Notes: generated by a model not told the origin, from the letters alone. A DNA stretch of 57,503 nucleotides from Dehalococcoidia bacterium (GCA_009377715.1 WHTN01000006.1:1-57503); one strand, 5' to 3'. Shown: positions 17,743-57,160, counted from the first letter of the stretch. Translations and numbers: made by a program.

Positions 17743-19428
17743 GTGGCAATGCAAACTGAGAACACCTACTGGCAGCGATTCTGGGGTAAGCGTGTGGGCC
17801 GGCGCAGGCTGCTGCAAGGCGCAGCTCTTGGCAGCGCTGGCTTGGCGGCCGCAGCGGTCATCGGCTGCGAGGAAGAGGAGGGTGGTTCGACTTCGTCGCC
17901 CGGGGCATCCCCGAGTGGCGGCGCCTCCGACCAACCGCGGTCGGGTGGAACGATCACCTTCGTCCAGACCAACAGCGACAGCACTCCCATGGACATCCAC
18001 AAGATCTCTTTCAATGCTTCGCACCGCCCCGGCGTTGCCTATAGCAAGTTGATGATGCACGACCTTACCAAGTACCCTAACGAGCTCAGTTTCACGGGCG
18101 ACTTGGCGGAGAGCTTCGAGATACCCGAACCAACAACTTACGTCTTCCACCTAAATAGAGGGGTCAAGTGGCAGAACATACCTCCGCTCAGTGGTCGTGA
18201 GCTCAAGGCCAGCGACATCGTTTACAGCTACGAACGCCAGAGGAGCGAGGGCGTGAACGGCGCCATCATCGGCTCCATCAATACAATTGAAGCGACCGAC
18301 GACTACACCTTACGGATTACCCTGAAGAAGGCAGACGCCGACTTCCTCTTTTCAATCGCCGACAACCGAACTCAGGTGATAGCGCCGGAGGCGGTAGAAG
18401 TGAACGGCAATCTGGATAACGGTCCGATCGTCGGCACAGGGCCATGGATCTTCGAAGAGCGAATTCCAGACCAAATCCTGAAGATGCGTAAGAACCCTGA
18501 CTATTTCCGGCCGGGGATCCCCTACGCCGACCGCTATGAAAGCCCGGTGATCCTCGACACCAACACTGCTCAGGCCGCGTTCCGCACTGGTCAGATCCAT
18601 GATGTGCCCACAAACGGGCAGATCACCGAACTGCTCCGATCTAGCGTCCGCGACCTTGAGGTACTGGACCAAAAATTGTTGATCGCCGGCGGCGGCGACA
18701 GGCTTTGGGTATCGCCACTCAACGGCCCGACGAAGGACGTCCGCGTTCGGCAGGCCCTCGGCAAGCTATTCGATCGCGACGCCATCATCCGCGACATCTA
18801 CTTCGGCAGCGGCTGGAAGAACTCAGGTATCTTCACCAACCTCAGCGACTGGCTGCTACCAGAGGCCGAGTTGAATAGGCACTACGGCTATAACCCCACG
18901 GAGGCGAAGCAGATGCTTGAAGCCGCGGGAGTGGACTTGGCGAACTGGAAGCCGCAGCTAGACGCCGGCATCGCCAGCACTCAGAACTCGCCAACCACCG
19001 AATACTACGTCGCGCAACTGAAGTCTGTTGGCATCGACGCCCGGATACAAGTTATCGACAAGGTGGAGATCACTGACCGCGTGTTCGGCCGAGGAGAGAC
19101 AGATTTCTGCATCTGCAACAACGCCCCAACCCGTGGCACCAACCCCCACCTCTACACCTTCTTCCACACGACCGGCCGCGGCGCCCTGCTCTTTAAGCAG
19201 CTTGGCGACTCGCAGTTCGACAGCCTTATCGACAAGCAGTCCACGATCCTCAATGCAGAAGAGCGCAAGGCTGCTGTTCAAGAAGTACAACGCCGTAATC
19301 TGGAACTCGCGATTGCCATTATGGTGGTCAACAACAACGGTGAGACTGCCATCTCCCCGAAGGTCGGAGGGTTCAAGAACAACCCTGAGGAGCAACTCCG
19401 CTTCGCTTACACCTGGCTAAGGGCCTAA
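17743..19428 (+). CDS. Tat-exported lipoprotein, ABC family-5 solute-binding protein (orphan, copy 1)
   Basis: YWQRFWGKRVGRRRLLQGA...VIGC leader; GDLAESFE, VGTGPW, RVRQALGKLFDR; AAGGAG upstream of GTG 17743 (ATG 17749 is an alternative start). Confidence 0.88.
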   Translation: MAMQTENTYWQRFWGKRVGRRRLLQGAALGSAGLAAAAVIGCEEEEGGSTSSPGASPSGGASDQPRSGGTITFVQTNSDSTPMDIHKISFNASHRPGVAYSKLMMHDLTKYPNELSFTGDLAESFEIPEPTTYVFHLNRGVKWQNIPPLSGRELKASDIVYSYERQRSEGVNGAIIGSINTIEATDDYTLRITLKKADADFLFSIADNRTQVIAPEAVEVNGNLDNGPIVGTGPWIFEERIPDQILKMRKNPDYFRPGIPYADRYESPVILDTNTAQAAFRTGQIHDVPTNGQITELLRSSVRDLEVLDQKLLIAGGGDRLWVSPLNGPTKDVRVRQALGKLFDRDAIIRDIYFGSGWKNSGIFTNLSDWLLPEAELNRHYGYNPTEAKQMLEAAGVDLANWKPQLDAGIASTQNSPTTEYYVAQLKSVGIDARIQVIDKVEITDRVFGRGETDFCICNNAPTRGTNPHLYTFFHTTGRGALLFKQLGDSQFDSLIDKQSTILNAEERKAAVQEVQRRNLELAIAIMVVNNNGETAISPKVGGFKNNPEEQLRFAYTWLRA

Positions 19429-19438
19429 GTAACAGAAG

Positions 19439-19470
19439 AAAAGGCCCCTCAGCAGTTGAGGGGCCTTTTT
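19439..19470. terminator. Rho-independent terminator
   Basis: AAAAGGCCCCTCAG-CAG-TTGAGGGGCCTTTTT between the SBP and RHO genes. Confidence 0.85.
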
Positions 19471-19500
19471 AATTAAGAATATTGCTAGAAAGGAGCAGCC

Positions 19501-20760
19501 ATGATCGACACAAGCAACCTCGTAAGCATGGAAACGGGCTTGATGGACAGACGCATCTACGTAGACCGCGAAATTTACGAGATGGAACTGGAACGCATCT
19601 TCGCTCGTACCTGGCTGTTCCTGGCACATGAGTCCCAGATACCGAACGCAGGTGATTTCGTTGCCGCCTACATGGGCGAAGACCCCGTACTGGTCGTTCG
19701 AGACTCGCGCGGCAACATCAACGCCTTCCTCAATACCTGTCGTCATCGCGGCATGCGCGTCTGCCGGGCAGATGCTGGCAACGCGGCGGCTTTCACCTGT
19801 ACGTACCACGGTTGGACGTATGGCAACGAGGGCAAGCTCGTGGGCGTGCCGGGCTACAAAGAGTACTACTACGAAGAGTTGGACATAGAGCAATGGGGCT
19901 TGGTGCCTGTGGCGCAAGTTGACTCCTATAAAGGACTGATCTTCGGCAACTTCGATGCCGATGCACCATCCCTAACTGAGTATCTCGGCGATATGAAGTT
20001 CTACCTCGATACGATGCTCGACCGCGTCGAAGGGGGAACAGAGATGATCGGCGGAATCCACAAGTGGGTCATGCCCTCTAACTGGAAATTCGCTGCGGAC
20101 AACTTCCAGGGCGATAACTACCACTTCCCCATCACCCATATCTCAGGTGTAAAGGCGGGCTTCGGCGGCACGACACCGAGGTCTTTGCTGGTCCGCACGA
20201 TCACCTCTTACGCCGGCCAAGGGCACGGCCTCGGCGTCTTTACCGAACGGCCGGAGTGGACGGATGCGCCGCTGGCGGAGTATATGGACGCTATCTGGCC
20301 GGAGATGGAGCAGCGCCTTGGCGAACAGCGCGCCAAGCACGTCTGGCCTGTAAACGGGACGGTATTCCCCAACATGTCATTCCTCGGTCTCGACCCAATG
20401 CGGACGATCCGCGTGTGGCACCCACGCGGCCCTGACAAGATCGAAATATGGTCATGGGTGTATGTCGATAAGAAGATGTCCGCAGAGGTCAAGGATATCA
20501 GCAGACTCAACACTCTTTGGGGACAGGCCGGCCCAGGCTCCACTTTCGAGGCAGACGACGGCGAAAACTGGGAGCAGTGCACGACGAGCAGCAAAGGCCG
20601 GGTCGCACGGCACTACCGCTTCAACTACTCGCTAGGCCTCGACCGTCACCGTACGGACGAGGAATTCCCCGGCAAAGTCGGCAATGCTGCGAATGAAATC
20701 AACCAGCGCGGCTTCTATGAGTACTGGCAGCACCTAATGGGCGGCGGAGACTTAGTTTAA
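19501..20760 (+). CDS. Rieske ring-hydroxylating oxygenase alpha subunit (copy 2)
   Basis: CRHRG...CTYHGW, DNYHFPITH, EADDGENW. Confidence 0.95.
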   Translation: MIDTSNLVSMETGLMDRRIYVDREIYEMELERIFARTWLFLAHESQIPNAGDFVAAYMGEDPVLVVRDSRGNINAFLNTCRHRGMRVCRADAGNAAAFTCTYHGWTYGNEGKLVGVPGYKEYYYEELDIEQWGLVPVAQVDSYKGLIFGNFDADAPSLTEYLGDMKFYLDTMLDRVEGGTEMIGGIHKWVMPSNWKFAADNFQGDNYHFPITHISGVKAGFGGTTPRSLLVRTITSYAGQGHGLGVFTERPEWTDAPLAEYMDAIWPEMEQRLGEQRAKHVWPVNGTVFPNMSFLGLDPMRTIRVWHPRGPDKIEIWSWVYVDKKMSAEVKDISRLNTLWGQAGPGSTFEADDGENWEQCTTSSKGRVARHYRFNYSLGLDRHRTDEEFPGKVGNAANEINQRGFYEYWQHLMGGGDLV

Positions 20761-20767
20761 CTCTAGT

Positions 20768-21637
20768 CTAATTTGCGCCGCGAACTTCGACATAGCCGTC
20801 CACAATGCGAGTTTCGAGGCGCGGCTGCGGAAATGTAGCTGGGCCATTGAGCACGCGGCCGTCATCCAGAGCGAAGCGCGAGGCATGCCAGGGACAGATG
20901 ATGCTCTCGTCAACCAGTTTGCCTTCCGGTAACGGGCCACCGAGATGCGAACATATCCCGACGAGCGCGTAGATGCTGCTCCCTTGCCGTACGAGCAGGA
21001 CCGGAACGCCTTGGACGTCTACACCGCGCGGTGCGCGCTCCTGTAGTTCCGATTCGCGCAATATACGTACGAAATCGGTCGGCAGATGTATGCCATCCAC
21101 ACGGCTGACGCCTATGCGCTGGCCATAAACCATATGCCCGCCAAGATACGCCGAAAGCAACGCGATATTGAAGCCCACAAACCCCATAGCAAAACCGAGC
21201 GGCCTGGCGTGCCGGCTGCGTAGTATCATCGACGTGGCATAACTCGACATTGCGGCGCTGTTTAGGAGCGCATGAGCAACGCCGGTGCGGCGCGCCCCGC
21301 CGCTGGTGTGCTGCCAGTCTGTTAGTCCGCTGAGCGCGGCGCCCATGCCGGCTATAAGCCCTAGGCCAATTGCTGCATCAGCAGCCCCGCGGCTCTTCTG
21401 GTCCTTGCCGAAAATCTCCAGCAAGTCCAATACGTAAGCCATAGTCCAGGCGCCTATCGCAACATCCGTAAAAACGGGATGAAGCGGGTGCCCTGACCAG
21501 GTGCCGTGCAGAAAGTTCTTAACTTTTTGCCCGGCGCCTCCACTCGCCCGGTATACGCCTTCGACCGACCGCTGGAGCCTATCGCCAACTCTATCCAGCC
21601 AGTCCTGCTGATCCAACTTGTCAAAAAGCTGTTGCAT
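20768..21637 (-). CDS. DUF2231-like membrane domain fused to a C-terminal Rieske [2Fe-2S] ferredoxin domain
   Basis: LHGTWSGHPLHPVFTDVAIGAW, GLTDW, AYLGGHMVY in a hydrophobic N-terminal half; CSHLGGPL...CPWHASRF...GPA in the C-terminal half. Confidence 0.88.
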   Translation of the reverse strand: MQQLFDKLDQQDWLDRVGDRLQRSVEGVYRASGGAGQKVKNFLHGTWSGHPLHPVFTDVAIGAWTMAYVLDLLEIFGKDQKSRGAADAAIGLGLIAGMGAALSGLTDWQHTSGGARRTGVAHALLNSAAMSSYATSMILRSRHARPLGFAMGFVGFNIALLSAYLGGHMVYGQRIGVSRVDGIHLPTDFVRILRESELQERAPRGVDVQGVPVLLVRQGSSIYALVGICSHLGGPLPEGKLVDESIICPWHASRFALDDGRVLNGPATFPQPRLETRIVDGYVEVRGAN

Positions 21638-21642
21638 TATAT

Positions 21643-21888
21643 TTAGCGGTGGATTTCGACGATGTGAACTTCCATCAACTCGTTAGTTACAAAGCCCTCC
21701 CCACACTGAGCGCATACGAAATTCGTTCCGCCCGGTGTGGTCGCTCCTTCTGACTCGCGTACGAAATTCGTCCCCCCAGGCGTTGTTCTACTCTGCCCTT
21801 CGTGCCCACGGGCATAGTGCTCTTCCAGATGCTGGCGGTCTCGAAAGGCCGTCCCGCAATGCTCGCAACGGTACGTATCTGTCGTCAT
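21643..21888 (-). CDS. Small protein with two C2H2-type zinc fingers
   Basis: YRCEHCGTAFRDRQHLEEHYARGH and FVCAQCGEGFVTNELMEVHIVEIH; GGAGGA ribosome-binding site before ATG 21888. Confidence 0.75.
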   Translation of the reverse strand: MTTDTYRCEHCGTAFRDRQHLEEHYARGHEGQSRTTPGGTNFVRESEGATTPGGTNFVCAQCGEGFVTNELMEVHIVEIHR

Positions 21889-22011: not shown

Positions 22012-23278
22012 TTATTCGACGGCTAAAGCCGCCTCGCGTTGCGTCGGGGAGTCGTGTTCTTGCACAAAGGCCCAGAAGACCGCTGCCGAAGTCACGGAAG
22101 CGACCGCTGCTGCGGGGCCTAGCAGAGTATAGCTGTCGCTGGCGTTGATGATCAGGCTGCCAATCAGCGAGCCCGTCACCACGCCGAAATTCATCGTCGC
22201 GTTGGTCAGCGCCATTATCGTCCCCCGCGCCCGCGGCGCCATCTCGGAAAGCATCGCCTGGGCATTCGTGTAGTGGTTGCCGTTAGCGATGGAGGCAAAG
22301 ATGAGAAAGAGAAACGCCAGCACCGACGTCTTCACCGCCACGGTCAAAAGCGCTTTGAAAAGCGCATCGACCAATCGACCGCCCACTATAAGCGTTCGCC
22401 TACCGTTACGGTCACCTAGCTGACCGCCGATGTTGCTGCCGATGACGTACGAAACGTTGATCACGACGACCGGGGATACCCGCTAACGACAATGGCAGCC
22501 CGTGGACATCGGTGAAGTAAGCCGCCAGGAAGGTGAAAATGATGCCCCAATGGATATCGTTGAGGTAGTTGGCTAGCAAAGCCATCCTTGTCCGGCGCTC
22601 ATGCAAAACGATTTCGATGGCTTGTCTGAAACCTATCTTCTCTGCGTTTGGGTCATCGGAACGTGTGGAGGAGGAAGCCATTAGCCAGAGGAACGCAGCC
22701 GCGATTACGCTTATCGCCGCGATGAAGACGAAGTTCAGCCGCCATGAGACCGTATCGGCGAGAACGGCGCTTGCAGGAAGCGCCAGCAAGTTGGCGGCCG
22801 TGTTCACGCTGAACACCCAAGCCATCGCCCGGCCACGTTCGTTATAGGGAAAGTAATCGCCGATAGCAGCCAGAACGGCGGCCATCAGTGCCGCCGAACC
22901 GACGCCAGCGAAGGCGCGGGTGGCAACGAGAACCCAGAAGTTTGGGGCGACGGCCGAAAGGACGCTCGAGACAGCGAAGATAACCAGGCCAGCGAGGATT
23001 ATGGGCTGGCGCCCTATGCGGTCGATGGTCGGCCCGACAGCGATAGAGCCGACGCCGGCCACCAGCGAAAACGCCACCGTCAGGAGGCCACCTACTGCTA
23101 TGCCGACGCCGAAGTCGTCGACGACCTCCGGCAGAATAGGGACGAGGATGAAGATATTAAAAGTGGATGCGAAGGAAGCGACACACAGCAGGGCCAGGAC
23201 GAACCTGCGATTGCCGCCTCCCTGCTGACCAGCTCGCATCTTGCTCACGAACGGAAGGCGGGCTAGGGCGGAAAGCAT
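22012..23278 (-). CDS. MFS transporter (frameshift near 22470)
   Basis: Motif A GPTIDRIGRQ in 22412-23278 and the second-half GGQLGDRNGRR in 22012-22464. Confidence 0.85.
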
Positions 23279-24617: not shown

Positions 24618-24648
24618 TCCTCCTGAATAGCCACTCTTCTTCTTCCCC

Positions 24649-27549: not shown

Positions 27550-29207
27550 GTGAATGAGATAGCGAACGACCACGATGAGAACAATCTTGGTGTTAACCTA
27601 GGAAAGAACTTCCTGGTTCACAAGATTCCGTCTCATTCTGCGACGACATATGACAGGCTTCTCAGCAGGATCAATCGATTCCCTGTTAAGGATTTCTTAA
27701 TGCTGTGTAATCTTGTTGCTAGGTGGATCGATGATAGACCGTCGTTACCCGACGCCCTAATCACCGTACCTCCAAACAAGGACTACGGTGTGTCGGCTCC
27801 ATGCCAAGTTTATCTTGCTCCATGGAGTGTAGCGTTCTTGGCGAAAAGTTCGATTATCCGTTCCCTCGGATATGCGGCAGCACATATTTACGCTAGACGA
27901 TTTTCGTGGGCTCGCCTATATGTATGCCAGCCTCATTGAACAAGCCACCCACAATCAGGCATGGATCGGGAGCCACACCAGGTTCTGTTGACGGTTGCAT
28001 GGGAACAGTTTGTCTATCAATCTGATTTGTTTCCATTGATCCCGCGAGCATATCTCATCTTGGTCACTGGAAATCGAGACATTCCAAATCGGCCTTTCGA
28101 CACCGAGGCGGAGTGGAAGGCGAGAACGGGTATCGAGTTAGAGAAATTCTTGATGGTGGGATTCGGCTATCTTGCTGGAGTTATGGCCCATAACTTGATT
28201 GTGAAATACTTTCCGGCGAGCGGAGTGATGGACAAGGCGATTAGTAGGGATGATTGTGACAAGTTTTTGGCACTTTGTGCCGCCAATTACGATGAATTTC
28301 GGGCCTTGTCGAAAGAGCACGAAGTGACTGACGTGACCTTCAAGAAGTATGAGTTTAATGTTCTACACAAAAGGCCCCTCATCGCTTTGGGCGAGGAGCT
28401 CATAGCACCGGTTCCGTGGATCTTGGCCCATAGAGTTACAGAAGGCCTCTATTTTGATTTGATGGATATGTTTCATGAAGCGACGGGAAATAAATTTCTA
28501 GATTATTTCGGTTATTTGTTCGAACACTATATTGGACGATGAATTACGCTTTCGGTGAAGAGAATGTGTACCACGAACCTAAATACGGCAAGCCGGAACA
28601 CGGAGGACCAGACTGGATAGTGATTGACAAAGATACCGCCATTCTAATCGAGTGTCGGAGTTCTCGACTCAGACTAAACTCAAAGATCTATGCAGATCAT
28701 GAAGACCTCTTAAAGGATACCCGACGTATCTTTCTAGAAACTTTGGAAAAGTATCCAGGCAAGATTGCGGATTTCATGGATGGTTCCATGGATATAGATG
28801 CTACCGGTGTCACTCATTGCGAGGCTATTGTTGTCATGTATGATCAACTTTTCGTCGAGTCTTACTATCGCGAGGTCGCTAGGGAACATTTTGCGCAGAA
28901 GGGCCTAACACCCTTTGATGATTATCACTTTATGGGAGTGGTGGACCTAGAGGTTTTGACCGGGTGGAACTCCACTCACCCAATGAAGACTCTTCTTCTG
29001 AAAAACAAGGAAGCGCGAACTCAAGAAATGCAGGATTTCAACGCATTCTTGCGGACTTACTCAAAGGATCATGATTTAAACTTCATGCACCCATTGCTCA
29101 AGGAAGTATTCGACGAGTTCTTCGCGAAACACTTTCAAATTTCTGCGGACGGAACCAAGCTGGAGCTTGAAGAGCCTACAGCTGACTCAACATCAACTTC
29201 TACTTAA
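27550..29207 (+). CDS. AT-richer hypothetical protein with a putative C-terminal PD-(D/E)XK-like nuclease motif (probably one gene split by two frameshifts)
   Basis: Consecutive ORFs 27550-27939, 27961-28542 and 28539-29207; GYLFEHYIG runs into ...GPDWIVIDKDTAILIECRS (E...PD...ExK-like); base composition visibly more AT-rich than the flanks. Confidence 0.5.
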
Positions 29208-42210: not shown

Positions 42211-43521
42211 TTAGTGACCGTCGCGCTGCCGGCGGATCTCGTCCCAACTATCGCCAGTCATGAGATCGGCCCACATCTTGTACAGGGCGCGCTGGTTATG
42301 TTCGCTAGGCGCAGGGCCAAGAGAACCAGGATATTCCTCGCTGACGCGCTCCCGTCCCAGGCCGATCTGGTAGTTCAGAGGATAGTTCCGGGCCATGACG
42401 CCCTTGCTGGACTCCGTGCACATGCCCCAGTTCTCGCCGTCGTCCTGCTCGAACGCAGAGGATGGGCCGGCTTGCTGGCGCTCTGTGGCCAGGCGAGTAA
42501 AGTCTTTCATAAATTGCGGCGCCTTCTTATCTACGAAGACCCATGACCACGTCTCGATCTTATCGGGACCGCGCGGGTGCCAGACCCTTATCGTGCGGTT
42601 GCCTTCGCTGCCGCTGAACAGCGACATGTTTGGGAAGATGTTGCCGTTACCCACAGCGACCTTAGTCCGGCTTTCGCCCAGCCGCTCCTCCTGCTCGCCC
42701 CTGACCTCCTTCATATAGTTCAGGTATTCAGGGTCGTTCGCGAAGCGCTCCACGTCGAGTTGAGTCGTGAAGACGGCATATCCGTGGCCATAGCCGGCCG
42801 CCGCTGCGAACCCATTCGAGATGTTCTGCGGACGCAGCCGGCGATTTTCTCCGGCGAATCCCGCCTTGACGGCGGAGATGTGGGTGACCGGCACGTGGTA
42901 GCCGTCGCCGGCGAAGTTGTCTGACGCGAACTTCCAGTTGGACGGCATAATCCACTTGTGGACGCCGCCGATGATCTCGACTCCGCCCTCGCGGCGGTCG
43001 AACGCTATGTCCAGGTAAAAGGCGAAGTCGCCGAGATACTCTTGCAGCGAGGGCGCCTCCAGGTCGAACGTGCCGAAGATCAAACCTCGGTACGAATCGA
43101 CCTGTGCCACCGGCACCAAGCCCCACTGCTCCATGTCGAGTTCTTCATAGTAGTATTCTTTGTAGCCCGGAACGCCGACGAGTTTGCCGTCATTGCCGTA
43201 CGTCCAGCCGTGGTACGTACAGGTGAAGGCGGCAGCGTTGCCTTCGTCGGCGCGGCAGACGCGCATGCCGCGATGGCGGCAGGTGTTCAAGAACGCGCCG
43301 ATCTTGCCGCGCGAGTCTCGCACTACCAGCACCGGGTCTTCGCCTATGTAGGCCGAAACGAAGTCACCGGGGTTGGGTATCTGCGTCTCATGCGCCAAGT
43401 AGCACCAAGCGCGAGCGAAAACGCGCTCCAACTCCAGTGCGTAGACGTCGCGATCGACGTAAACACGGCGATCGATCAGTCCTCTCTCCATATCGACGAG
43501 ACGATTTATGTCGGTGATCAT
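42211..43521 (-). CDS. Rieske ring-hydroxylating oxygenase alpha subunit (copy 4)
   Basis: CRHRG...CTYHGW, DGYHVPVTH, EQDDGENW. Confidence 0.95.
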   Translation of the reverse strand: MITDINRLVDMERGLIDRRVYVDRDVYALELERVFARAWCYLAHETQIPNPGDFVSAYIGEDPVLVVRDSRGKIGAFLNTCRHRGMRVCRADEGNAAAFTCTYHGWTYGNDGKLVGVPGYKEYYYEELDMEQWGLVPVAQVDSYRGLIFGTFDLEAPSLQEYLGDFAFYLDIAFDRREGGVEIIGGVHKWIMPSNWKFASDNFAGDGYHVPVTHISAVKAGFAGENRRLRPQNISNGFAAAAGYGHGYAVFTTQLDVERFANDPEYLNYMKEVRGEQEERLGESRTKVAVGNGNIFPNMSLFSGSEGNRTIRVWHPRGPDKIETWSWVFVDKKAPQFMKDFTRLATERQQAGPSSAFEQDDGENWGMCTESSKGVMARNYPLNYQIGLGRERVSEEYPGSLGPAPSEHNQRALYKMWADLMTGDSWDEIRRQRDGH

Positions 43522-43603: not shown

Positions 43604-44899
43604 TTATCGGCCGGCACTGCCAGAGGTACGTATGTCATCCCAGCTTTCGGCCGCCATTAGCTCGGCCCAGCGACTGTATAGGTTCCGCTGCCTCACCTCG
43701 CTAGGACTTTCGCAGGTGAGGCCGGGTACGTTCTCGTCGTACCGTTCGTGGCCTAGGCCCATCGAGTAGTTAAACTCTTGGCGCCTACTGATACGGCCGT
43801 TGCTGGCGTAAGTGCACTGGTTCCAGTTTTCGCCGTCGTCTTGCTCGAAAGCACCGCCCGGGCCGAAGCGGCGGGAGTGAAAAAGCTGCATCTCCCGCTT
43901 AAGATGTTCCGGCGCAGCCTTATCTACGAAGCACCACGACCAAACCTCGGTCTTCTGCGGGCCGCGCGGGTGCCACACACGCATCGTGAAGAACTCGAAC
44001 GAAAGGTTCGGGAAACACGTACCCACGATCGGTTCGATCAGATGCGTTCGCGGGCCTAGATGCTGCTCCATCTCACCTACCAGCGTTTGGTGATAATACT
44101 CGTTAATTTGCGGCCACTCATCGACTGGCCAGGTCGCATCCGGATTAAATCCGGGACGCGTAATCACGCCGTGACCGCCCTGCGGGCTAACGTGGAGGCC
44201 GCGCGTCCGTTGCTGAACGGAGATCCGGTTGGAAGTGAAGCCCATCTTTGTCGCGGAAATATGCGTGATCGGCACGTGGTAGCCGTCGCCGGCGAAGTTG
44301 TCCGCCGCAAACTTCCAATTGCAGGGCATGATCCACTTGTTCACGCCGCCGACGACCTCAGAGCCCTCCGGCCGGCGATGGACGAGAAAGTCGAGGTAGT
44401 ACGCCATATCGCCGAGGTATTCGAGCAGCGGCGGCGCGCTGGAGTCAAAGGTGCCGAAGATCATCCCGGCGTATGAGTCGACCTGCGCTACGGGCACCAA
44501 TCCCCACTGCTCCATGTCCAACTCTTCGTAGTAGTACTCTTTGTAACCCGGGACGCCTACCAGCTTACCGTCATTACCGTACGTCCAGCCGTGATAGGTG
44601 CAAGTGAACGCAGCCGCGTTGCCAGCGTCCGCGCGGCAGACGCGCATGCCGCGGTGGCGACACGTATTTAGGAAGGCGTTGATCTTGCCACGCGAGTCGC
44701 GGACTACCAGCACCGGGTCTTCGCCCATGTAAGCAGCGACGAAGTCGCCGGGATTGGGCAGTTGGGTCTCGTGGGCTAAGAACAACCATGAGCGGGCGAA
44801 AATACGCTCCAACTCCATTTCGTAGACTTCCTGATCGACGAATATTTGCCGGCTGACCAGGCCAGTCTCGCGGCTAACTAGGTCTTTAACGTCCAGCAT
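43604..44899 (-). CDS. Rieske ring-hydroxylating oxygenase alpha subunit (copy 5)
   Basis: CRHRG...CTYHGW, DGYHVPITH, EQDDGENW. Confidence 0.95.
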   Translation of the reverse strand: MLDVKDLVSRETGLVSRQIFVDQEVYEMELERIFARSWLFLAHETQLPNPGDFVAAYMGEDPVLVVRDSRGKINAFLNTCRHRGMRVCRADAGNAAAFTCTYHGWTYGNDGKLVGVPGYKEYYYEELDMEQWGLVPVAQVDSYAGMIFGTFDSSAPPLLEYLGDMAYYLDFLVHRRPEGSEVVGGVNKWIMPCNWKFAADNFAGDGYHVPITHISATKMGFTSNRISVQQRTRGLHVSPQGGHGVITRPGFNPDATWPVDEWPQINEYYHQTLVGEMEQHLGPRTHLIEPIVGTCFPNLSFEFFTMRVWHPRGPQKTEVWSWCFVDKAAPEHLKREMQLFHSRRFGPGGAFEQDDGENWNQCTYASNGRISRRQEFNYSMGLGHERYDENVPGLTCESPSEVRQRNLYSRWAELMAAESWDDIRTSGSAGR

Positions 44900-45047
44900 A
44901 ACCGTCTCCTTTACTAGAGGTAACTTATTTTAATGCCTCTTTGCTCATTTTGCCAGAAGTATTCCTCGATGACGCCTAGGAAGGCCATAAAGAAGAGCGA
45001 CGAGGATATATCCTCGTCGCTCTTCTTTATGCGATAGCCCAAGCTCC

Positions 45048-46735
45048 TCAGGCGGCGAACCAAGCCTCCGCGTAGCGATGTGGCTCGTTCGGATCGTTCT
45101 GGTAACCACGAAGCTTCGGCTGGATAGCTTCAGTATTCGTCCTGGAGTAAATCGGAACGACGATCGCCGTCTCCAAGACCTTCCTCTGCACATCCTCAAG
45201 AATAGCCTCGCGTTCCTCGGCGTCCAAAGTGGTAGCCTGCCTGTCAATTAAGCTATCGAGCTGCGTGTCCGCCAGCTGCTTGTATGGGGCGGCGAAGCGG
45301 CCCGAGGAGTGATAGAAGATAAGCAGTTCGCCGTTAGTACCGCTGAAAGTGGGCTTATTGCAAATGCAGAACTCAGTTGTGGCGTTCAGCCAGATCTTGT
45401 CCGTGATCTCGACCTTGTCTACCTTGTGCACGGTGGCGTCGATGCCTATCTGCTTGAGAGTAGATATGTACACTTCGGTGGTTGGGTCGGTGGAGTCGGC
45501 GGTCGGAATACCGGAGTCCAGGACCGGCTTCCAGCTGACGGGGTCGAATCCGGCAGCCTGGAATAGCTGTCTGGCTTCCTGGACGTTGTAACTGACGTAC
45601 TTATTCATTTCGTCGGGTGACAGATGCCAGTCGAGGGAGGGCAGGAAGATGCCCGTGCTTTCCCAACCAGCGCCGAAAAGAACGTCGCGAATCAGGGCTT
45701 AGGCGGTCGAACAGCTTGCCGAGGGCCTGACGCACGCGTGCATCCCGTGTGGGACCGGTGGCAGGCGACATCCAGAGTCTGTCACCGCTAGCCGCTCCCA
45801 TTAATTTGCCTTCCACAATCTGCATATCGGGCACGCCCTGCCTGAGCAGACGGGTGATCTGGTCGTTGGTGCGGTTGTTGAGGACCTGGCCGGTACGGAA
45901 AGCCGCCTGGCCCGTCTGAAGGTCAGTAATCGTGAGCATCTGCCACTCATCGGCGTAGGGCATGGGACTCAAGACATACTCTGGGTTCCTCTTTAACGTC
46001 GTAACCTGTTCTGGCACCCACTCTTCGAATATCCATGGGCCGGTGCCGATCAGCGGCCCGTCCTTAAGGTCACCGCCCGCAGCCTCCACGGCTTCGCGTG
46101 GCATTATCTCCGATCGCGGGTCATGGATCGCCCACAGGAAGTCAGCGTTTGGCTGCTTGAGCGTGATCCTCACGGTATAGTCGTCAGGAGCTTCCATTCT
46201 ATCTACGGAGGCCAGCACAGAGCCGTTTACCTTCTCGTCGATCATGCGCTGAAGGCTGTAGACTACATCGCTGGACTTTAGTTCGCGACCGTTGACCGGC
46301 GCGATGTTGTGGAATTTAACTCCCTTGCGCAGGTTGAATACGTAGGTAGTAGCGTCGGGGATCTGGTGACTCTCGGCCAGTTCAGGCGCGAAATCGATCG
46401 TGTTCGGATACTTGGTCATGTCGTGCCGGAGCATCTTGTTATAGACGGCGCCTGAGCGGAACATAGTAGTGTGCCCGATCTTGTGGATGTCGAGCGTAGG
46501 CGCCGCTTCCGAGCTCTGGCTTACGTAAACGTGCGTTCCGCCCCGTTGGGGCGTATCGCTCGCCGCACCACCACTACCCGTCGGCTGTGAGATCGAACCG
46601 CTCTCCTCCTCGCCACAGCCGATAACGGCTGCTGCCGCCAGTCCCGCGCTTCCTAACGCTGCCCCCTGCAGCACGCGACGACGACTCACTCTCTTTTTGC
46701 CAGAAGTTCTGCCAGTAGGTTTTTTCGTTACTCAC
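45048..46735 (-). CDS. Tat-lipoprotein family-5 solute-binding protein (copy 2; frameshifts near 46695 and 45700)
   Basis: GTG 46735 after AAAGGAG gives VSNEKTYWQNFWQK / RVSRRRVLQGA...VIGC; ORFs 45601-46689 and 45048-45608 align end to end with copy 1. Confidence 0.85.
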
Positions 46736-49544: not shown

Positions 49545-50652
49545 GACGCTCGCGAGGCCCCCACGAGATCGCTGATGTCGGTGCCCAACTCCTTCGCTAA
49601 CTCTGACGCTTCGTCCCAGAAGTTATCGAGCACAGGTATGCCATTCCGCATTCGCTGTTCCGCCATTTCGAAGCCGCGTTTCGCCCGGCATGTATATTCT
49701 GTCCGTATCCGGCCGCTTCTTAGACCTTCGTAACTCGCGGATCCTGCTGTCCACCCTCTCCTTAAATGCTTCGACGTTCTGGAAGAAGGAGATGTTTATG
49801 GCAATGAAGAAGGCGGGGTTATGCAGAATATGGACACCGGGCGGCGTGGGCCAGTCATCGTCGTTGCCGGTTTTTAGGTACGGCAATATCTGACCGATCA
49901 TCTCGACCATGAGTTGGATGCCGTAACCTTTACTGTTGCTGGCCATATTGTCCATGGAGCCACGCCGCTCTACGTTCGGCCGCGGGCCGCCCGGGCCGGC
50001 GAACTGGTTCGGATCTGTTGTGGGAAAGCCATCGTCATCGAGGATAAAGCCGAGCGGTATATGATCGGTTCCCACGTACGGCCGGATGCCGGCGAAGGAA
50101 GTGGACGCTGTCGCCCAATCGAGAATGATCGGATATTCGTCCTTCGTCGGTATGCCGAAGGCTATCGGGTTCGTGCCGAGCATGCGCTCTTTGCCACCCC
50201 AGGGAGGCGTGCCGGCGTCCGAACCGGAGAACGCGATCCCGATCAGGTCCTCCCTGGCTATAAGCTCAGCAAAGAAGCCGAGTGCGTTGCTGCTGTTGCA
50301 CTGGTATATACTCGCAGCCACTATAGGAACGCCTTTTCGCTTTTTCGATAAGCTTTTCGATAGCGAACAGCGTAACTGCTTTACCGTCGCCCCACTGCCC
50401 GTCGACCACGAGATGCGCCGGAGACTCGTTTACGATGGTTGGAACGAAGTCGTTGTTGAGGCCCTCCGCTGTGCCTAGGCGTATACGCTGACGCACCGAA
50501 CGAGCGAAATCGCCGAAACCGTGGTTGTTGCCGCGTAGCGTAGCCCAGAGGTACGACTCGGCAGTCGCCCTGGCCTCAAGGTCCGAGAAGCCGGCTGCCT
50601 TATAAGTCCGCTTGACAAGCTCTCTAAACTGGTCGGGGGTAATGGTTGGCAT
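49541..50652 (-). CDS. Ldh_2 family oxidoreductase (malate/L-lactate/ureidoglycolate dehydrogenase type; frameshifts near 50320 and 49680)
   Basis: LRGNNHG, VVDGQWGDG, PPWGGKERMLGTNPIAFGIP, ILDWATA, KGYGIQLMVE, IYMPGE; ATGA overlap with the amidohydrolase gene. Confidence 0.82.
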
Positions 50653-52376: not shown

Positions 52377-53657
52377 TTACGCTTTGATTAGCTCAGTCCA
52401 GTCCTTGCCGGCCATTAGATCTGACCAAAAGGAGTAGATGTTGCGCTGGTTCGCCTCGCCGGGCCCTTCGACGAAGGTGCCCGGCAATTCTTCATCGAAC
52501 CGCTCCTGGCCAAGGCGTAGCTGATAGTTGAAGTCGTACCTTCTTGCGACGCGCCCGTTGCTGGACTCGGTGCACATATTCCAGTTCTCGCCATCGTCTT
52601 GCTCCAGCATCCCGCCGGGGCCGGATTGGCCGCGCAGGTTTTGCACTCGGTAGATGTCCTTGATCTCCGGCGGCGCCTCCTTATCGACGATGCACCACGA
52701 CCACGCTTCGACCTTATCGGGCCCGCGCGGGTGCCAGACGCGAATAGTATGATTAGCGTCGGTCACCTGGAAGGAGAAGTTTGGGAAGATCGTACCTGTG
52801 TTCGTCCACACCTTCTGCGCCCTTAACTCTCCCATCTGTTTTTCCCTTTGCGACCAGACTCCCTCCAAATACGAAGCGAGTTCGGGAAGTCGCGGCGGCT
52901 GATTTTCCAATGCCAAGCTTGTGCCATGGCCGTAGTCCGTGTAGACGGTGAAGCTGGGAACAGGCGTTCTGAGGCGATCGGTGCTCCGCCCGCCCAGACC
53001 GACCTTGAGGGCAGAGATGTGGGTGATGTTGAAGTGGTAGCCGTCCGGGCTGAAGTTGTCGGCGGCGAACTTCCAGTTGCTGGTCATGACCCACTTCTGC
53101 GTTCCGCCGACGAGTTCTGTACCGCCCGGAGTACGTTCGAGGAACGTGTCGAGGTAGAAGGTAATATCGCCGAGGTACTCCCGCAAGGACGGAGCTTCAG
53201 GGTCGAACGTGCCGAAGATCAAGCCTTTGTACGAGTCCACCTGGGCAACCGGCACCAAGCCCCACTGCTCTATATCTAGCTCTTCGTAGTAGTACTCTTT
53301 ATATCCTGGCACACCCACCAGTTTGCCGTCGTTACCGTACGTCCAGCCGTGGTACGTACAGGTGAAAGCAGCCGCATTGCCTGCGTCCGCGCGGCAGACG
53401 CGCATGCCGCGATGGCGGCACGTATTTAGGAAGGCGTTGATCTTGCCGCGTGAATCGCGGACGACCAGCACCGGGTCTTCGCCGATGTATGCAGCGACGA
53501 AGTCGCCGGGGTTGGGTATCTGCGACTCGTGGGCCAGGAAACCCCAGCAGCGCGCGAAGATGCGCTCCAGTTCGAGTTCGTATATCTCTCGGTCTACGAA
53601 GAGACGGCGACTGACCAAGCCGCTCTTAGAGTTAACGAGTTCGCTGACGTCGATCAT
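52377..53657 (-). CDS. Rieske ring-hydroxylating oxygenase alpha subunit (copy 6)
   Basis: CRHRG...CTYHGW, DGYHFNITH, EQDDGENW; AAGGAGG before ATG 53657, 17 nt after the SBP stop. Confidence 0.95.
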   Translation of the reverse strand: MIDVSELVNSKSGLVSRRLFVDREIYELELERIFARCWGFLAHESQIPNPGDFVAAYIGEDPVLVVRDSRGKINAFLNTCRHRGMRVCRADAGNAAAFTCTYHGWTYGNDGKLVGVPGYKEYYYEELDIEQWGLVPVAQVDSYKGLIFGTFDPEAPSLREYLGDITFYLDTFLERTPGGTELVGGTQKWVMTSNWKFAADNFSPDGYHFNITHISALKVGLGGRSTDRLRTPVPSFTVYTDYGHGTSLALENQPPRLPELASYLEGVWSQREKQMGELRAQKVWTNTGTIFPNFSFQVTDANHTIRVWHPRGPDKVEAWSWCIVDKEAPPEIKDIYRVQNLRGQSGPGGMLEQDDGENWNMCTESSNGRVARRYDFNYQLRLGQERFDEELPGTFVEGPGEANQRNIYSFWSDLMAGKDWTELIKA

Positions 53658-53674
53658 AAACGCCCTCCTTTGCT

Positions 53675-55351
53675 TTAACTCTTCAACCAAGCATAGGCGA
53701 ACCGGTACGGCTCCTGAGTATCATTCTTGTAGCCGGCGACACGCGGCTGAATCGCGACTTCTCCGGTCTGGCCCACGGTTGGCGAAGCCACAGCGTCCAT
53801 TAGTCCGCGGCGCACTGCATTTAGCAAGACCGGCTTACGTTCTTCCGGCTCCAGTATCGTCGATTGGGCCTCGATCAAGCGGTCAAATTCGGCATCCGCA
53901 AACTTCTTCCAGTAAGTTGCAACGCCACCATTAGAATGGAAGTAGTTGAACAGATGTAGGTTCGTGCCTCGCGGAGCTGGGTCGTTAAGGATCGCTATCG
54001 GCTCCTTGGCCGACCTAAAGATTTCGATTACTTCCTGACTCTCAATAGGCCGGAGCTGGGCTCTGATACCGATCCTTGCCAACTCGGCGAGGAAGCTCTC
54101 CGCTGTCCCGACGTTCCTCTGGTAGGCAACCCCGTTTGGTATGACCGGGTTTAGGGAGCCGGGGTCGACGCCGGCAGCCTGCAGCAGCTGCTGGGCTTGC
54201 TGAGGATTGTAACCTACCAAGTTATCAAACTCACTTTGCGGCAGGATCCAGTCCAGGGAAGGGACGAACATCATTGGGTGCAGCCAGCCGCTGCCAAAGT
54301 ACACCTGATCAAGAATTTGCTCGCGGTTGAAGAGCTTGGCCAGAGCTTGCCTGACCCTCTGGTCGGTATAAGGCGGTACCGTTGGGTCTATCCAAAGGCG
54401 GTCGCCGGTCTGATTGAGCAGTCTGGCGTCCAGCACGTAGAGGTCCGGGACCGTCTGTTTGAGCAGGTCAGTGGTCTGGCCGACCGTGCCGATTATGTCG
54501 ATCTGCCCAGTTCGGAAGGCAGATATCTCAAGGTTGGGGTCTTCGAGACGGTAAACTTCGTGCCGTTCCATATAGGGAAGGGACTGGCCATCGCTGCCAT
54601 CTATATAGAACTCCGGGTTACGCGTCGACGCGGTTAATGCAGTATCGGCATCGTTTGGAGACCAGATCCAGGCGCCAGAGCCGATGATCGGTCCCTCCAC
54701 CAGGTCGCCTCCCGCCGCCTCGACGCTCTCTGGCGGGACGATGGGGGTACGAAGGTCGCTCAGCGCCCAAAGGAGGTCGGCATCGGGCTGGGACAGCGTA
54801 ACTCGAACTGTAGAATCGTCCGGCGCCTCTACGTTTGTCACAGCCCTGAGCGTGCCGCCATTTACCTCGGCCTTCTGCCTCTGGTAGCTAAATACGACAT
54901 CCGATGCTCTCACGTTCCGGCCGCCCACCGGCGGAATATTTTGATATGTAACGGCTGGGTTGATCTTGAACACCCAGACCGTAGGCTCGGCAACCTCCCA
55001 GTTCTCGGCTATGTCCCCTATGAAAGTAACCTCATCCGGATATTTGTCGAGGTCGTGGCGGGCCAAGCGGCCGTAGTTGCCATGTGATTGCGGCTGGGAA
55101 AAGGTGCTCTTGTGCGGGTCCCAAGTCGGGGCAAAGTCGACAGTGTTAAGGTCACGGAGGGTGCCGCCGCGGACGGGCTGATCAGAGGCGCCGCCGGTAG
55201 CGACCGGACTAGCTCCGCTATCGCCTTCTTCCTCGCCGCAACCGATTACGGCCGCCGCCGCGATGCCTGCGCCACCCAGTACTACCCCCTTCAACGCGCG
55301 GCGCCGCGTAATGCGCCTCCGCCAGAAACGATCCCAGTAGTTAGTTTCCAT
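53675..55351 (-). CDS. Tat-lipoprotein family-5 solute-binding protein (copy 3)
   Basis: METNYWDRFWRRRITRRRALKG...VIGC; PVRGGTL, GDIAENWE, RVRQALAKLFNRE. Confidence 0.9.
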   Translation of the reverse strand: METNYWDRFWRRRITRRRALKGVVLGGAGIAAAAVIGCGEEEGDSGASPVATGGASDQPVRGGTLRDLNTVDFAPTWDPHKSTFSQPQSHGNYGRLARHDLDKYPDEVTFIGDIAENWEVAEPTVWVFKINPAVTYQNIPPVGGRNVRASDVVFSYQRQKAEVNGGTLRAVTNVEAPDDSTVRVTLSQPDADLLWALSDLRTPIVPPESVEAAGGDLVEGPIIGSGAWIWSPNDADTALTASTRNPEFYIDGSDGQSLPYMERHEVYRLEDPNLEISAFRTGQIDIIGTVGQTTDLLKQTVPDLYVLDARLLNQTGDRLWIDPTVPPYTDQRVRQALAKLFNREQILDQVYFGSGWLHPMMFVPSLDWILPQSEFDNLVGYNPQQAQQLLQAAGVDPGSLNPVIPNGVAYQRNVGTAESFLAELARIGIRAQLRPIESQEVIEIFRSAKEPIAILNDPAPRGTNLHLFNYFHSNGGVATYWKKFADAEFDRLIEAQSTILEPEERKPVLLNAVRRGLMDAVASPTVGQTGEVAIQPRVAGYKNDTQEPYRFAYAWLKS

Positions 55352-55377
55352 TACATACTCCTTTTGCCTAAGTCCTT

Positions 55378-55470
55378 AGACATGAAGCCGAACGGGTTTG
55401 GTATCTGCGATTCGTGGCTGGAGAAGCACCAGTAGCGAGCGAAGAGCTACTCCAGCCTGTTCGTATATCT
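55378..55470 (-). pseudogene. Decayed 5' fragment of an RHO alpha gene
   Basis: Minus strand translates IYEQ / LE*LFARYWCFSSHESQIPNPFGF, matching IYExELERIFARCWxFLAHESQIPNPGDF of the intact copies. Confidence 0.8.
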
Positions 55471-55477
55471 TTGTTAC

Positions 55478-57160
55478 CTAACTCTTCAACCAAGTAAAGG
55501 CGAAGCGATGCGGCTCCTGGCTGTCGTGCTTGTAGCCCACGACCCGAGGCCGGATAGCGAATTCTTGCGTCTGGCCAACCGATGGTACAGCTACAGCGTC
55601 CGAGAGGCCCCGCCGTACGACCTCTAACAGAGCAGCCTTACGCCGCTCTGGCTCGTCCACTATCGTTGCCTGCGCCTCAATTAGCCTATCGAACTGAGTA
55701 TCTCCAAGCTTCTTCCAGTACGTCGCCACGCCACCACTCGAGTGGAAGTAGTTGAACAAGTGCAAGTTAGTGCCTCGCGGCGCCGGGTCGTTCAGTAACG
55801 ATATCGGCGCCTTGGCCGTGACAAAGACATCGATTACTTCTTGGCTTACAATGGGCTGAAGCTCGGCGGTGATCCCTATCTTCTTCATCTCGGACGCAAG
55901 GATCTCCGATATCGCAATGTTCCTGGCAAAGTTAGCTCCTGAGGGTATTGTGGGCCTGAATGACCCCAAGTCCACGCCGGCCGCCTGGAGCAGTTGCGTG
56001 GCCTGCTGCGGGTTGTAACCGACCAAGTTATCAAACTCCGACTGAGGCAAGATCCAGTCTAATGAAGGGACGAACATCATCGGGTTTACCCAACCGCTGC
56101 CAAAGAAGGCATTATTCTGTATCTCCTCGCGGTTGAACAGCTTGCCGAGGGCTTGCCTGACCCTCTGGTCGTTGTACGGCGACTGCGTCGCATCCATCCA
56201 GAGCCTGTCGCCGGTCTGGTTTAGTAGTTTGGCGTCCAGCACATAGAGATCGGGCACTGTCTGTTTGAGCAGCTCGGTAGTCTGGCCGTTGGTGTCCATG
56301 AGGTCGGCCTGCCCAGTGCGAAAAGCGGAAACCTGAAGGTTGGCATCTACAATGACTACCTGTTCTACATTCTCCATATAAGGGAGCGGCTGGCCATCCG
56401 TTCCTTTTCGGAAGAAGTCCGGATTGCGCCTCTTCTTGGATACTTGGTTTAGGACGTAGCTGGCCTGGTCCCAGATCCAGGCGCCGGTGCCGATGATCGG
56501 TCCTTCTTTCAGTTCGCCGCCCGCGGCCTCCACGCTCTCCGGTGGGATTATTGGCGTCCTCAGGTCACTAAGCGACCAGAGGAGGTCTGCATCCGGCTGC
56601 GCCAGAGTCACTCGAACGGTCAGGTCATCGGGCGCCTCCACCTTTGAGACAGCCCTGATGGTTCCCGCGTTCACGTTGGCCTTCTGTCTCTCGTAGCTGT
56701 ATACGACATCGCTTGCTTTGACAGTCCGGCCGTTCACTGGCGGAATATTATGATATTTGACGGCCGGGTTAATCTTGAAGACCCAAACAGTCGGCTCGGC
56801 GATCTCCCAGCTCGCCGCTATATCGCCGGTGAAGGTCACCTCGCCAGGATATTTATCGAGATCATGCATCGCTAGCCGGCCGTAGATGCCATGACCCCCC
56901 GGCTGCGCAAAGGTGCTCATGTGCATGTCCAGGGTTGGTGCGTGGTTGATTTGCGTAAACTCGTAAAGCGTCCCCCCACGTACCGGCTGATCAGAAGCTC
57001 CTCCGGTAGCCGTTGGAGCGGCGCCGTCACCCCCTTCCTCTTCATCGCAGCCGACTACAGCAGCCGCCGCGAGCCCCGCACCGCCTATCACAGCCCCCTT
57101 CAGTGCGTGGCGTCGCGTGATACGCCTCTGCCAGAAGCGATCCCAGTAGTTAGTGTCCAT
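55478..57160 (-). CDS. Tat-lipoprotein family-5 solute-binding protein (copy 4, close paralog of copy 3)
   Basis: MDTNYWDRFWQRRITRRHALKG...VVGC; long stretches identical to copy 3, e.g. PMMFVPSLDWILPQSEFDNLVGYNPQQA. Confidence 0.9.
   Translation of the reverse strand: MDTNYWDRFWQRRITRRHALKGAVIGGAGLAAAAVVGCDEEEGGDGAAPTATGGASDQPVRGGTLYEFTQINHAPTLDMHMSTFAQPGGHGIYGRLAMHDLDKYPGEVTFTGDIAASWEIAEPTVWVFKINPAVKYHNIPPVNGRTVKASDVVYSYERQKANVNAGTIRAVSKVEAPDDLTVRVTLAQPDADLLWSLSDLRTPIIPPESVEAAGGELKEGPIIGTGAWIWDQASYVLNQVSKKRRNPDFFRKGTDGQPLPYMENVEQVVIVDANLQVSAFRTGQADLMDTNGQTTELLKQTVPDLYVLDAKLLNQTGDRLWMDATQSPYNDQRVRQALGKLFNREEIQNNAFFGSGWVNPMMFVPSLDWILPQSEFDNLVGYNPQQATQLLQAAGVDLGSFRPTIPSGANFARNIAISEILASEMKKIGITAELQPIVSQEVIDVFVTAKAPISLLNDPAPRGTNLHLFNYFHSSGGVATYWKKLGDTQFDRLIEAQATIVDEPERRKAALLEVVRRGLSDAVAVPSVGQTQEFAIRPRVVGYKHDSQEPHRFAFTWLKS

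Follow-up and report, generated by a model that had tools for sequence, protein, structure and literature searches.

Binding-protein and oxygenase genes of the window

We analysed a stretch of 57,503 nt from a Dehalococcoidia bacterium (GCA_009377715.1, WHTN01000006.1:1-57503; the window in the following), in which genes for lipoprotein solute-binding proteins (SBPs) of family 5 with a twin-arginine translocation (Tat) signal are repeatedly followed by a gene for the alpha subunit of a ring-hydroxylating oxygenase (RHO). The window is the entire contig C84 of its source genome (G000 in the following; 2.35 Mb on 109 contigs, completeness 93.6%, estimated contamination 2.8%). A Pfam scan covering 55 open reading frames (ORFs) identified five family-5 SBP loci and six RHO alpha genes in total. 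Respective coordinates are provided in Table 1.

An earlier note on this DNA had stated that all four Tat-type SBP genes are followed by RHO alpha sequence on the same strand. Pfam and profile matches bear this out, including the fourth SBP gene, for which the note had named a remnant at 55378. The latter is a true RHO piece, i.e., a 31-codon fragment of which 28 residues are matched (E 1.6e-7 within the window, 5.2e-6 among all short ORFs of the genome), and it is the sole short RHO piece of such kind genome-wide. On its 5' side, the frame is still RHO-like yet interrupted by stop codons. Its position between tandem SBP genes points to a former SBP-RHO-SBP-RHO array. For the other three pairs, the coordinates give spacers of 72 nt (19428 to 19501), 148 nt (45048 to 44899) and 17 nt (53675 to 53657), the last being the value given before; ATG 53657 is probably the true start of the respective RHO, as judged from an N-terminal alignment with the other copies.

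The first RHO copy directly follows oppABC, in agreement with the note, and starts 177 nt past oppC. The statement that the Tat-type SBPs have no permease neighbours holds for the immediate neighbours, but the first pair lies 4.2 kb past oppABC within one co-directional array (9824-20760), i.e., oppA, oppB, oppC, RHO, VOC (vicinal oxygen chelate) protein, bicupin, bicupin, SBP and RHO. The SBP that heads this array has OppA as its top NCBIfam match (264 bits vs. a cut-off of 947) and an N-terminus ending in LACEEE, and no ATPase gene follows the OppBC pair. The VOC protein and the two bicupins are likely ring-cleavage enzymes.

With regard to family membership, the three intact Tat-type SBPs of the window reach 142-190 bits for PF00496 (cut-off 32.4). 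For the frameshifted fourth one (45048-46689), the N-terminal ORF scores 145.5 bits and the C-terminal ORF 22.2 bits, i.e., under the cut-off; the two ORFs cover profile positions 2-228 and 262-327, and the signal reads SRRRVLQG..VIGC. All four combine a twin-arginine motif with a VIGC lipobox in the form ..YWxRFWQRRxSRRRxLQG..AAAAVIGC.. (YWQRFW..GRRRLLQG..AVIGC in cassette 1). Genome-wide, a regular expression for SRRR plus a [LVI][AGS][AGS]C lipobox matches 18/27 SBP5 loci, and the remaining nine comprise two Sec-lipoprotein SBPs, N-terminally truncated pieces and close variants that escape the expression. In bacteria with a single membrane, binding proteins are anchored as lipoproteins. A total of 17 SBPs, among them that of cassette 1, form one well-supported clade (the core clade), whose members are 40-46% identical to the reference, with one tandem pair at 72%. 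NCBIfam equivalogs are far under their cut-offs (NikA 49-86 vs. 393 bits, DppA 36-65 vs. 1005 bits). A single-sequence PDB search of the SBP at E <=1e-25 gave no match, and an identity of 48% or more to the query SBP is reached by just 20 proteins among 5.8 billion protein clusters. In a weak profile alignment (about 20% identity) with the dipeptide-binding protein chain 8z1z_F, the SBPs carry Pro where this chain has residue 436, which presumably corresponds to the E. coli DppA Asp (mature Asp408) that grips the peptide amino group. We also observed a conserved [YF]WxxFWQRRxSRRR that precedes the Tat hydrophobic core; all 14 matches of this expression in genome ORFs are SBP5 (14/14), and similar SBP N-termini are found in the related genome G002 and in distant Chloroflexota SBPs.

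The RHO alphas score 371-449 bits with the HcaE model (NF042946), about half of its equivalog cut-off of 830, such that by these scores they are HcaE-like yet not HcaE orthologues. The nearest solved structures are the BphA1 (1uli) and HcaE (8k0a) large subunits, matched over full length with 380-384 bits (biphenyl dioxygenase 1uli at 384 bits for the cassette 1 RHO). An alpha-only oxygenase of the betaine/carnitine type was considered and rejected, given only 116-131 bits for GbcA (cut-off 670) and HcaE and BphA matches that span the full RHO length. Among 46 near-full-length loci, the Rieske motif CxH-x17-CxxH is intact in 44, the other two being truncated or frameshifted, and the mononuclear iron motif DxxHxxxxH is present in 43. 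A single clade holds 43 alphas (core-type), while a second clade comprises three divergent copies, two of them on C31 and one on C101; both divergent alphas on C31 directly precede beta genes.

The Rieske domain (residues 36-125) is on average 91% identical over 34 intact core paralogs, and 97-99% in places (up to 99% in 20-residue windows), while identity in the same set is as low as 21-35% in some segments of the catalytic domain. Gene conversion was rejected as the source of this near-invariance: synonymous third positions in the Rieske domain are near saturation as well (agreement at identical four-fold-type codons of 0.48 vs. 0.33-0.43 elsewhere), i.e., the constraint acts at the protein level and does not reflect recent gene conversion. 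A near-invariant Rieske domain next to divergent substrate pockets is what would be expected if all paralogs dock one electron donor.

Concerning the junctions, profile-aligned ends give four spacers of 15-41 nt (C32, cassette 3 of the window, C102, C39), a spacing that suits coupled translation. The note had added the caveat that a strong terminator separates the first pair. A terminator-like hairpin is indeed found there, and 0/200 shuffles fold equally well. Some ABC (ATP-binding cassette) transporter operons have a hairpin after the binding-protein gene that raises the binding protein relative to the downstream products (e.g., malE-malF), such that the caveat is no argument against coupling; complete termination at these hairpins may also occur.

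Many genes are split into two overlapping ORFs each, in the window, e.g., nuoL (2475-4429), which encodes a housekeeping subunit of complex I, a major facilitator superfamily (MFS) gene (22012-23278), Ldh_2 (49623-50652), the cassette 2 SBP (45048-46689) and a RHO (35170-36371). Genome-wide, eight RHO and six SBP5 loci are fragmented. Homopolymer indels were considered as the origin of the split ORFs; none of the five break sites inspected is at a long homopolymer. Apart from these genes, three successive ORFs (129, 193 and 222 aa) without a Pfam match lie on the plus strand at 27550-29207, which is the window's lowest-GC stretch (0.50 vs. about 0.58).

Table 1. Positions of SBP, RHO and associated features in the window
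Feature	Position	Strand	Remarks
OppA-like family-5 SBP, Sec-type lipoprotein signal	9824-11527	+	PF00496 330 bits; heads the co-directional array
OppB-type and OppC-type permeases	11719-12636 and 12602-13531	+	BPD_transp_1 with BPD_transp_1_N and with OppC_N, respectively
RHO alpha copy 1	13709-14983	+	Rieske and Ring_hydroxyl_A; HcaE-like, 432 bits vs. cut-off 830
VOC/glyoxalase protein	15082-15537	+	PF00903
Two bicupins	15631-16497, 16667-17536	+	Cupin_2 twice in each
Cassette 1 SBP, Tat-lipoprotein, family 5	17743-19428 (ORF from 17689)	+	PF00496 190 bits
Intercistronic hairpin	19439-19469	+	14-bp stem then TTTTT; -27.4 kcal/mol, z -5.05
Cassette 1 RHO alpha	19501-20760	+	HcaE-like, 433 bits; CxH..CxxH and DxxHxxxxH motifs
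Membrane DUF2231 fused to Rieske ferredoxin-like domain	20768-21637	-	PF09990 and PF00355; convergent with cassette 1
Solo RHO alpha, no SBP upstream	35211-36371	-	C-terminal frameshift; pieces 35214-36371, 35170-35541
Cassette 2 second RHO alpha	42211-43521	-	Rieske and Ring_hydroxyl_A; 82 nt past the first
Cassette 2 RHO alpha	43604-44899	-	Rieske and Ring_hydroxyl_A
Perfect 21-bp hairpin within the 148-nt SBP-RHO spacer	44986-45031	-	Spacer folds at -58.4 kcal/mol, z -6.17
Cassette 2 SBP, Tat-lipoprotein	45048-46689	-	Frameshift-split; two PF00496 ORFs, overlap 45601-45608
Cassette 3 RHO alpha	52377-53657	-	ORF as listed begins at TTG 53690
Cassette 3 SBP, Tat-lipoprotein	53675-55351	-	SBP_bac_5
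Decayed RHO alpha N-terminus remnant between tandem SBP genes	55354-55446	-	RHO profile positions 34-61
Upstream tandem SBP, Tat-lipoprotein	55478-57160	-	72% identical to 53675-55351

Adjacency within and beyond the source genome

Profiles built from the window's own copies identify 48 RHO-alpha and 27 SBP5 loci in G000 (49 and 27 matches by Pfam). For 11/27 SBP5 loci, a RHO alpha follows on the same strand within at most 200 nt: three pairs each are on C31 and C84 and one each on C32, C34, C39, C47 and C102. Two SBPs of these pairs (on C31 and C39) are C-terminal fragments only. Two more SBPs are upstream partners in tandem SBP pairs, and for one SBP the downstream region is cut by the contig end. 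We compared the adjacency with a permutation background based on crude gene calls (2521 genes with 48 RHO and 25 SBP; 20,000 shuffles). Here, SBP-then-RHO is counted 9 times, while the shuffled mean is 0.31 and the shuffled maximum 4. The same gene calls show the RHO-then-SBP order once and opposite-strand neighbours once; the order bias of SBP-then-RHO vs. the reverse is 11 to 1. That is, the adjacency is real, far above chance and directional, and the genome-wide enrichment implied by the earlier note is found. As a negative control, distant SBP5 relatives (at most 33% identity) have a RHO in their flanks at 0/25 genome and 0/29 metagenome loci.

The arrangement also recurs in relatives. Large RHO sets are restricted to G000 and G002 (27 matches) when 41 genomes of the order are compared. 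Of 65 genomes in the order, G000 contains the core SBP clade (17 matches) and G016 does so weakly (2); the same two are the only ones among 401 genomes of the class, where 3 candidates per genome were scored. In G002, contig C106 has an operon-like cluster whose genes share one strand and are 11-60 nt apart, i.e., SBP, RHO alpha, RHO beta, a zinc-dependent alcohol dehydrogenase (ADH), OppB, OppC and SBP. In both trees, the SBP and the alpha of this cluster are placed with the C31 cassettes of G000 (SBP plus alpha-beta-ADH), and its permeases are nearest to the C56/C57 pairs of G000 (42-49% identity vs. 33-39% to the others). In G234, a genome of another order (75% complete) with 31 RHO and 20 SBP5 matches, 8/19 SBP5 loci examined directly precede a RHO alpha, and for one more a RHO is about 1 kb off. 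The SBPs of G234 carry Sec-type lipoprotein signals and form a clade separate from the core clade; for the clades in between, the flanks fetched contain no RHO. For OppC_N, G234 has one match, and for the beta subunit a single weak fragment. A different picture is seen in G215 (same class, 4.8 Mb, 860 contigs), with 105 SBP5 matches scored of 241 first-look candidates next to 3 RHO alphas, i.e., SBP5 can expand without RHOs in the class.

The note had further proposed that the pair duplicates and diverges as a unit. A number of events fit this proposal. Besides the remnant, C34 2608-4295 and C31 14077-15738 are 90.5% identical over 1693 nt spanning the RHO and the SBP 3' end, with a cupin at 87% identity downstream. 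The G234 pairs at L073 and L074 are sisters in the SBP tree as well as in the RHO tree, the window pairs starting at 17743 and 53675 group together in both trees with weak support, and an orthologous SBP plus alpha-beta cassette is shared by G000 and G002. Over a set of ten pairs from G000, the SBP distances do correlate with those of the RHOs (Spearman r 0.75, p 0.004), a value driven by the split between two cassette classes. Within the clades, in contrast, the comparison of SBP and RHO trees gives no significant correlation (values below), such that the proposal is supported in part. On C32 and C102, sister SBPs are paired with RHOs that are distant and not sisters, and linked and unlinked members are interleaved in both trees. 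Tandem SBPs occur on C47, C84 and C20 and tandem RHOs on C84, C90, C101 and C102. Co-divergence as a unit is seen for some pairs only.

Transport, electron-transfer and neighbouring genes

Next to its SBP surplus, G000 has few translocator genes. Three of its four OppB/OppC pairs follow an SBP, and respectively only three SBP5 genes stand directly ahead of a permease pair (oppA on C84, and those on C56 and C109). The fourth pair, on C57 (66.7-68.7 kb; L089 3671-5653), has neither an SBP nor an ATPase beside it and is flanked by MFS_3 and peptidase S51 genes. Judged from this gene context, it is a natural translocator candidate for the orphan SBPs. Only three OppD/F-type ATPase genes are present, two on C68 (about 65.1-66.4 kb) and one on C52 (about 12.9-14.0 kb), amid housekeeping genes (methyltransferase, adenylosuccinate synthetase, holA, MazG); none adjoins a permease. 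Since the ATPases are apart from all four OppBC pairs, the entire Opp-type system is dispersed. In total, 27 SBP5 loci face 4 OppBC pairs and 3 OppD/F ATPases. In G234, the respective numbers are 20 SBP5 matches vs. 1 OppC_N match, for a genome that is 75% complete.

The electron-transfer genes of G000 are similarly few, i.e., one ferredoxin reductase (HcaD/AndAa-like, on C47) and two small HcaC-like Rieske ferredoxins (on C72 and C14). Beta subunits (PF00866) number 4 for 48 alpha loci. Alphas with an adjacent beta are restricted to C62 and the two on C31, and only the HcaF-like beta on C62 adjoins a core-type alpha. The alphas may have one beta in common or may function on their own. The C-terminal part of the DUF2231-Rieske fusion in the window is AndAb/HcaC-like, and the fusion may be a membrane-anchored electron donor. 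The second of the two DUF2231 genes of G000 (C52 29281-29694) is directly upstream of an orphan core SBP. Shared back-ends fit these gene counts, with about 25 SBPs and 48 alphas on the one side and few permeases, ATPases, reductase, ferredoxins and betas on the other. This is consistent with the transport core and electron-transfer chain in common that the note had envisaged.

The surroundings of the cassettes are typical of aromatic catabolism. We find a BphC-like extradiol dioxygenase (277 bits vs. cut-off 366), bicupins, single cupins, a split LigB, a short-chain dehydrogenase/reductase (SDR), zinc-dependent dehydrogenases and molybdoenzymes of the xanthine-dehydrogenase type. Proteins of the dihydrodipicolinate synthase (DHDPS) family recur near cassettes, for which the models give weak HpaI/DapA-like scores; NahE-type hydratase-aldolases are presumably members of this family. 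MFS_3 genes adjoin SBP or SBP-RHO loci in both genomes, where they may serve import or the export of products; they are located at L031 1632-2909, L035 202-1611 and L089 1892-3220 in G000, and at L073 5992-6999 and L075 2-1144 in G234. A phage-type integrase is directly downstream of the SBP-RHO cassette on C32 (L027 1163-2257), and an IS481-like transposase fragment (L094 1765-2391) adjoins the stand-alone HcaC-like ferredoxin on C72. Both are possible hints of mobility.

Candidate explanations and known systems

Considering what the sequences show, i.e., identities and counts of genes, signal peptides and catalytic motifs as well as the adjacency statistics and their recurrence in other genomes, the best-supported explanation, and to us a probable one, is that the pairs are modules for uptake and a first oxidation step that draw on common components for transport and electron transfer. 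Here, a Tat-exported, lipid-anchored family-5 SBP would capture an organic, probably aromatic, compound outside a probably single-membrane cell and pass it to one of the few Opp-type ABC translocators, which are encoded elsewhere and would be shared by docking of the orphan SBPs. The cytoplasmic biphenyl/HcaE-type RHO alpha encoded by the downstream gene would then oxidise the imported compound, i.e., SBP ligand and RHO substrate would match, with electrons presumably provided by the one shared reductase and the two shared Rieske ferredoxins. We infer that the pair is co-transcribed, where the short or overlapping junctions would suit coupled translation, while the strong hairpins after some SBP genes would yield SBP in excess of the enzyme.

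A number of observations weigh against such modules. Most RHO alphas (37/48, of which 4 are cut by contig ends) have no SBP directly upstream, and for about half of the core SBPs no RHO follows. In the RHO-rich genomes G167 (19 RHO, 1 SBP5) and G424 (15 RHO, 6 SBP5), no contig carries both, i.e., RHOs can expand without SBPs. Respective Mantel tests, which have low power on star-like trees, give r 0.29 for the core clade of G000 (642/5040 permutations as good) and, with the same restriction, r 0.18 for the G234 pairs (214/720). Ligands established for family-5 SBPs are peptides, nickel, opines, haem, glutathione and sugars, and the closest solved relatives found by profile search are binders of the peptide, nickel, opine and haem kind (about 120 bits). 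Strong terminator-like hairpins are located just past the SBP stop codon at 3/9 folded junctions, namely those of cassettes 1 and 2 (Table 1) and a third one at -45.1 kcal/mol (z -3.88); the other six have none. MFS transporters, several of MFS_3 type, recur beside cassettes and could be the true importers. Finally, the split genes, among them one of the window's four Tat-type SBP genes, may mean that some copies are dead, or they may be assembly indels.

A rival reading is an adjacency that is inherited but functionally unmatched. That is, an ancestral neighbourhood would have been copied by segmental duplication in catabolic islands, with the SBP importing unrelated compounds, e.g., peptides, and the 11 cases would go back to few events rather than being independent. 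The 1693-nt duplicate shared by C34 and C31, the tandem SBPs and RHOs, the peptide, nickel and opine binders among the best profile and structure matches and the non-significant within-clade distances are all in line with such copying. On the other hand, the pairs are old, with SBPs at 40-46% identity and RHO synonymous sites near saturation, yet order, strand and tight spacing have been kept. The same order is found for a separate SBP5 clade in G234, one cluster in G002 has RHO alpha and beta genes placed between its SBP and its permeases, and the order bias is 11 to 1. We consider a merely inherited neighbourhood unlikely.

Clearly less probable still, with only a slim chance, is that the SBP-like lipoproteins are sensors through which a membrane signalling protein that controls RHO expression would be informed of a compound. 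Signalling that depends on SBPs exists in other bacteria, and most SBPs studied here lack an adjacent permease or ATPase. However, no histidine kinase or chemoreceptor gene adjoins any cassette examined, and the regulators nearby, present at some loci only, are ordinary cytoplasmic TetR, LacI and LuxR types. Moreover, close SBP relatives adjoin OppBC permeases (C56 in G000, C106 in G002), and a permease pair without SBP is available on C57. An artefact of assembly or binning, i.e., a metagenome-assembled genome (MAG) in which contigs have been collapsed or are chimeric, is hardly credible: the 109 contigs, the estimated contamination of 2.8%, the many split ORFs including nuoL and the overlap of C31 and C91 at 95% identity would be compatible with it, but the pattern is present on seven contigs with differing flanks as well as in two other genomes, and the paralogs are deeply diverged.

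Returning to modules for uptake and first oxidation, a wider claim can be put forward tentatively, which we rate at somewhat below an even chance. Two Dehalococcoidia lineages would have separately built a modular recognition system from SBP5 and RHO alpha genes, in which the SBP sets what is captured and the RHO what is oxidised, while all cassettes rely on the same few permeases, ATPases and ferredoxins, one reductase and perhaps a single beta. If true, the established ligand classes of family-5 SBPs would be extended by aromatic or dissolved-organic-matter compounds. The arrangement would be a cheap way to widen the substrate range of a 2.3-Mb genome, i.e., two specificity genes are copied and the membrane and electron-transfer parts are reused. 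If SBP and RHO specificities match, each SBP ligand would name a candidate substrate of the neighbouring oxygenase. Soluble SBPs, which are easily expressed and bind tightly, would then be a practical bait for natural RHO substrates in compound libraries or organic-matter extracts.

Among known systems, the SAR202 bacteria are close with regard to gene content. SAR202 genomes, although small, are reported to hold dozens of COG4638-type alphas next to 1-3 betas (PMC6946804; Colatriano et al. 2018, PMC6123686), where the expansions of ring-hydroxylating dioxygenase (RHD) alphas with few beta subunits concern groups VII and IV (Saw et al. 2020, PMC6946804). Both see in the alphas a means to process aromatic or recalcitrant dissolved organic matter. 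The substrates of the oxygenase paralogs of these SAR202-type ocean Chloroflexi bear on the turnover of such recalcitrant matter. G000, with 48 alpha loci and 4 beta genes, resembles these expansions. Since in addition 24/25 named SBP-relative loci are from Chloroflexota/Dehalococcoidia MAGs and the SBPs are lipoproteins, we infer G000 to be a SAR202-type member of the Dehalococcoidia. The pairing of SBP and RHO and the matching SBP5 expansion are an added feature of G000 compared with the SAR202 accounts. The main text of PMC6946804 does not mention a transporter or binding protein, and that of PMC6123686 has no mention of transporters, binding proteins, operons, synteny or gene clusters. The same terms are absent from PMC11994032, while PMC6306507 mentions ABC transporters and RHDs, but separately. 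In the main texts of the open full-text literature searched, we found no description of an SBP-RHO cassette.

Aromatic operons with a dedicated SBP next to a Rieske oxygenase are reported for the terephthalate protein TphC and the Tph dioxygenase (PMC8556258) and for the iad operon of Variovorax (PMC10374108). The likeness is that a binding-protein gene beside Rieske oxygenase genes links uptake to first oxidation. Those are single operons, while in G000 the pairing of a family-5 SBP with a lone alpha is repeated many times, and most of the modules lack transporter, beta, ferredoxin and reductase genes. We take the SBPs of both operons not to be of family 5 (TphC: TTT family). Orphan SBPs that share an ABC translocator are known from HisJ and ArgT with HisQMP, from multiple OppA with one OppBCDF and from shared ATPases such as MsiK. 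The about 25 SBP genes of G000, facing 4 permease pairs and 3 ATPases that stand apart, are alike in this respect; they differ by the larger scale and by the pairing of an orphan SBP with a catabolic enzyme gene, and the docking would be analogous.

With regard to the enzyme, the 3-phenylpropionate dioxygenase HcaEFCD of E. coli and the biphenyl dioxygenase BphA (both alpha3beta3) provide the best profile and structure matches with motifs kept, and HcaC-, HcaD- and HcaF-like parts are present in G000; unlike there, only the core-type alpha on C62 adjoins a beta, and the electron-transfer genes are unlinked. In sphingomonad-style sets, multiple terminal oxygenases are served by one ferredoxin and reductase. 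G000 likewise combines many oxygenase components with one reductase and few ferredoxins, but differs in holding the Rieske domain at 91% identity over 34 paralogs, and to our knowledge such sets do not feature a pairing with SBPs. Taken together, we read the arrangement as a variation on catabolic operons with an SBP, on orphan SBPs that share a translocator and on RHO expansions of the SAR202 type.

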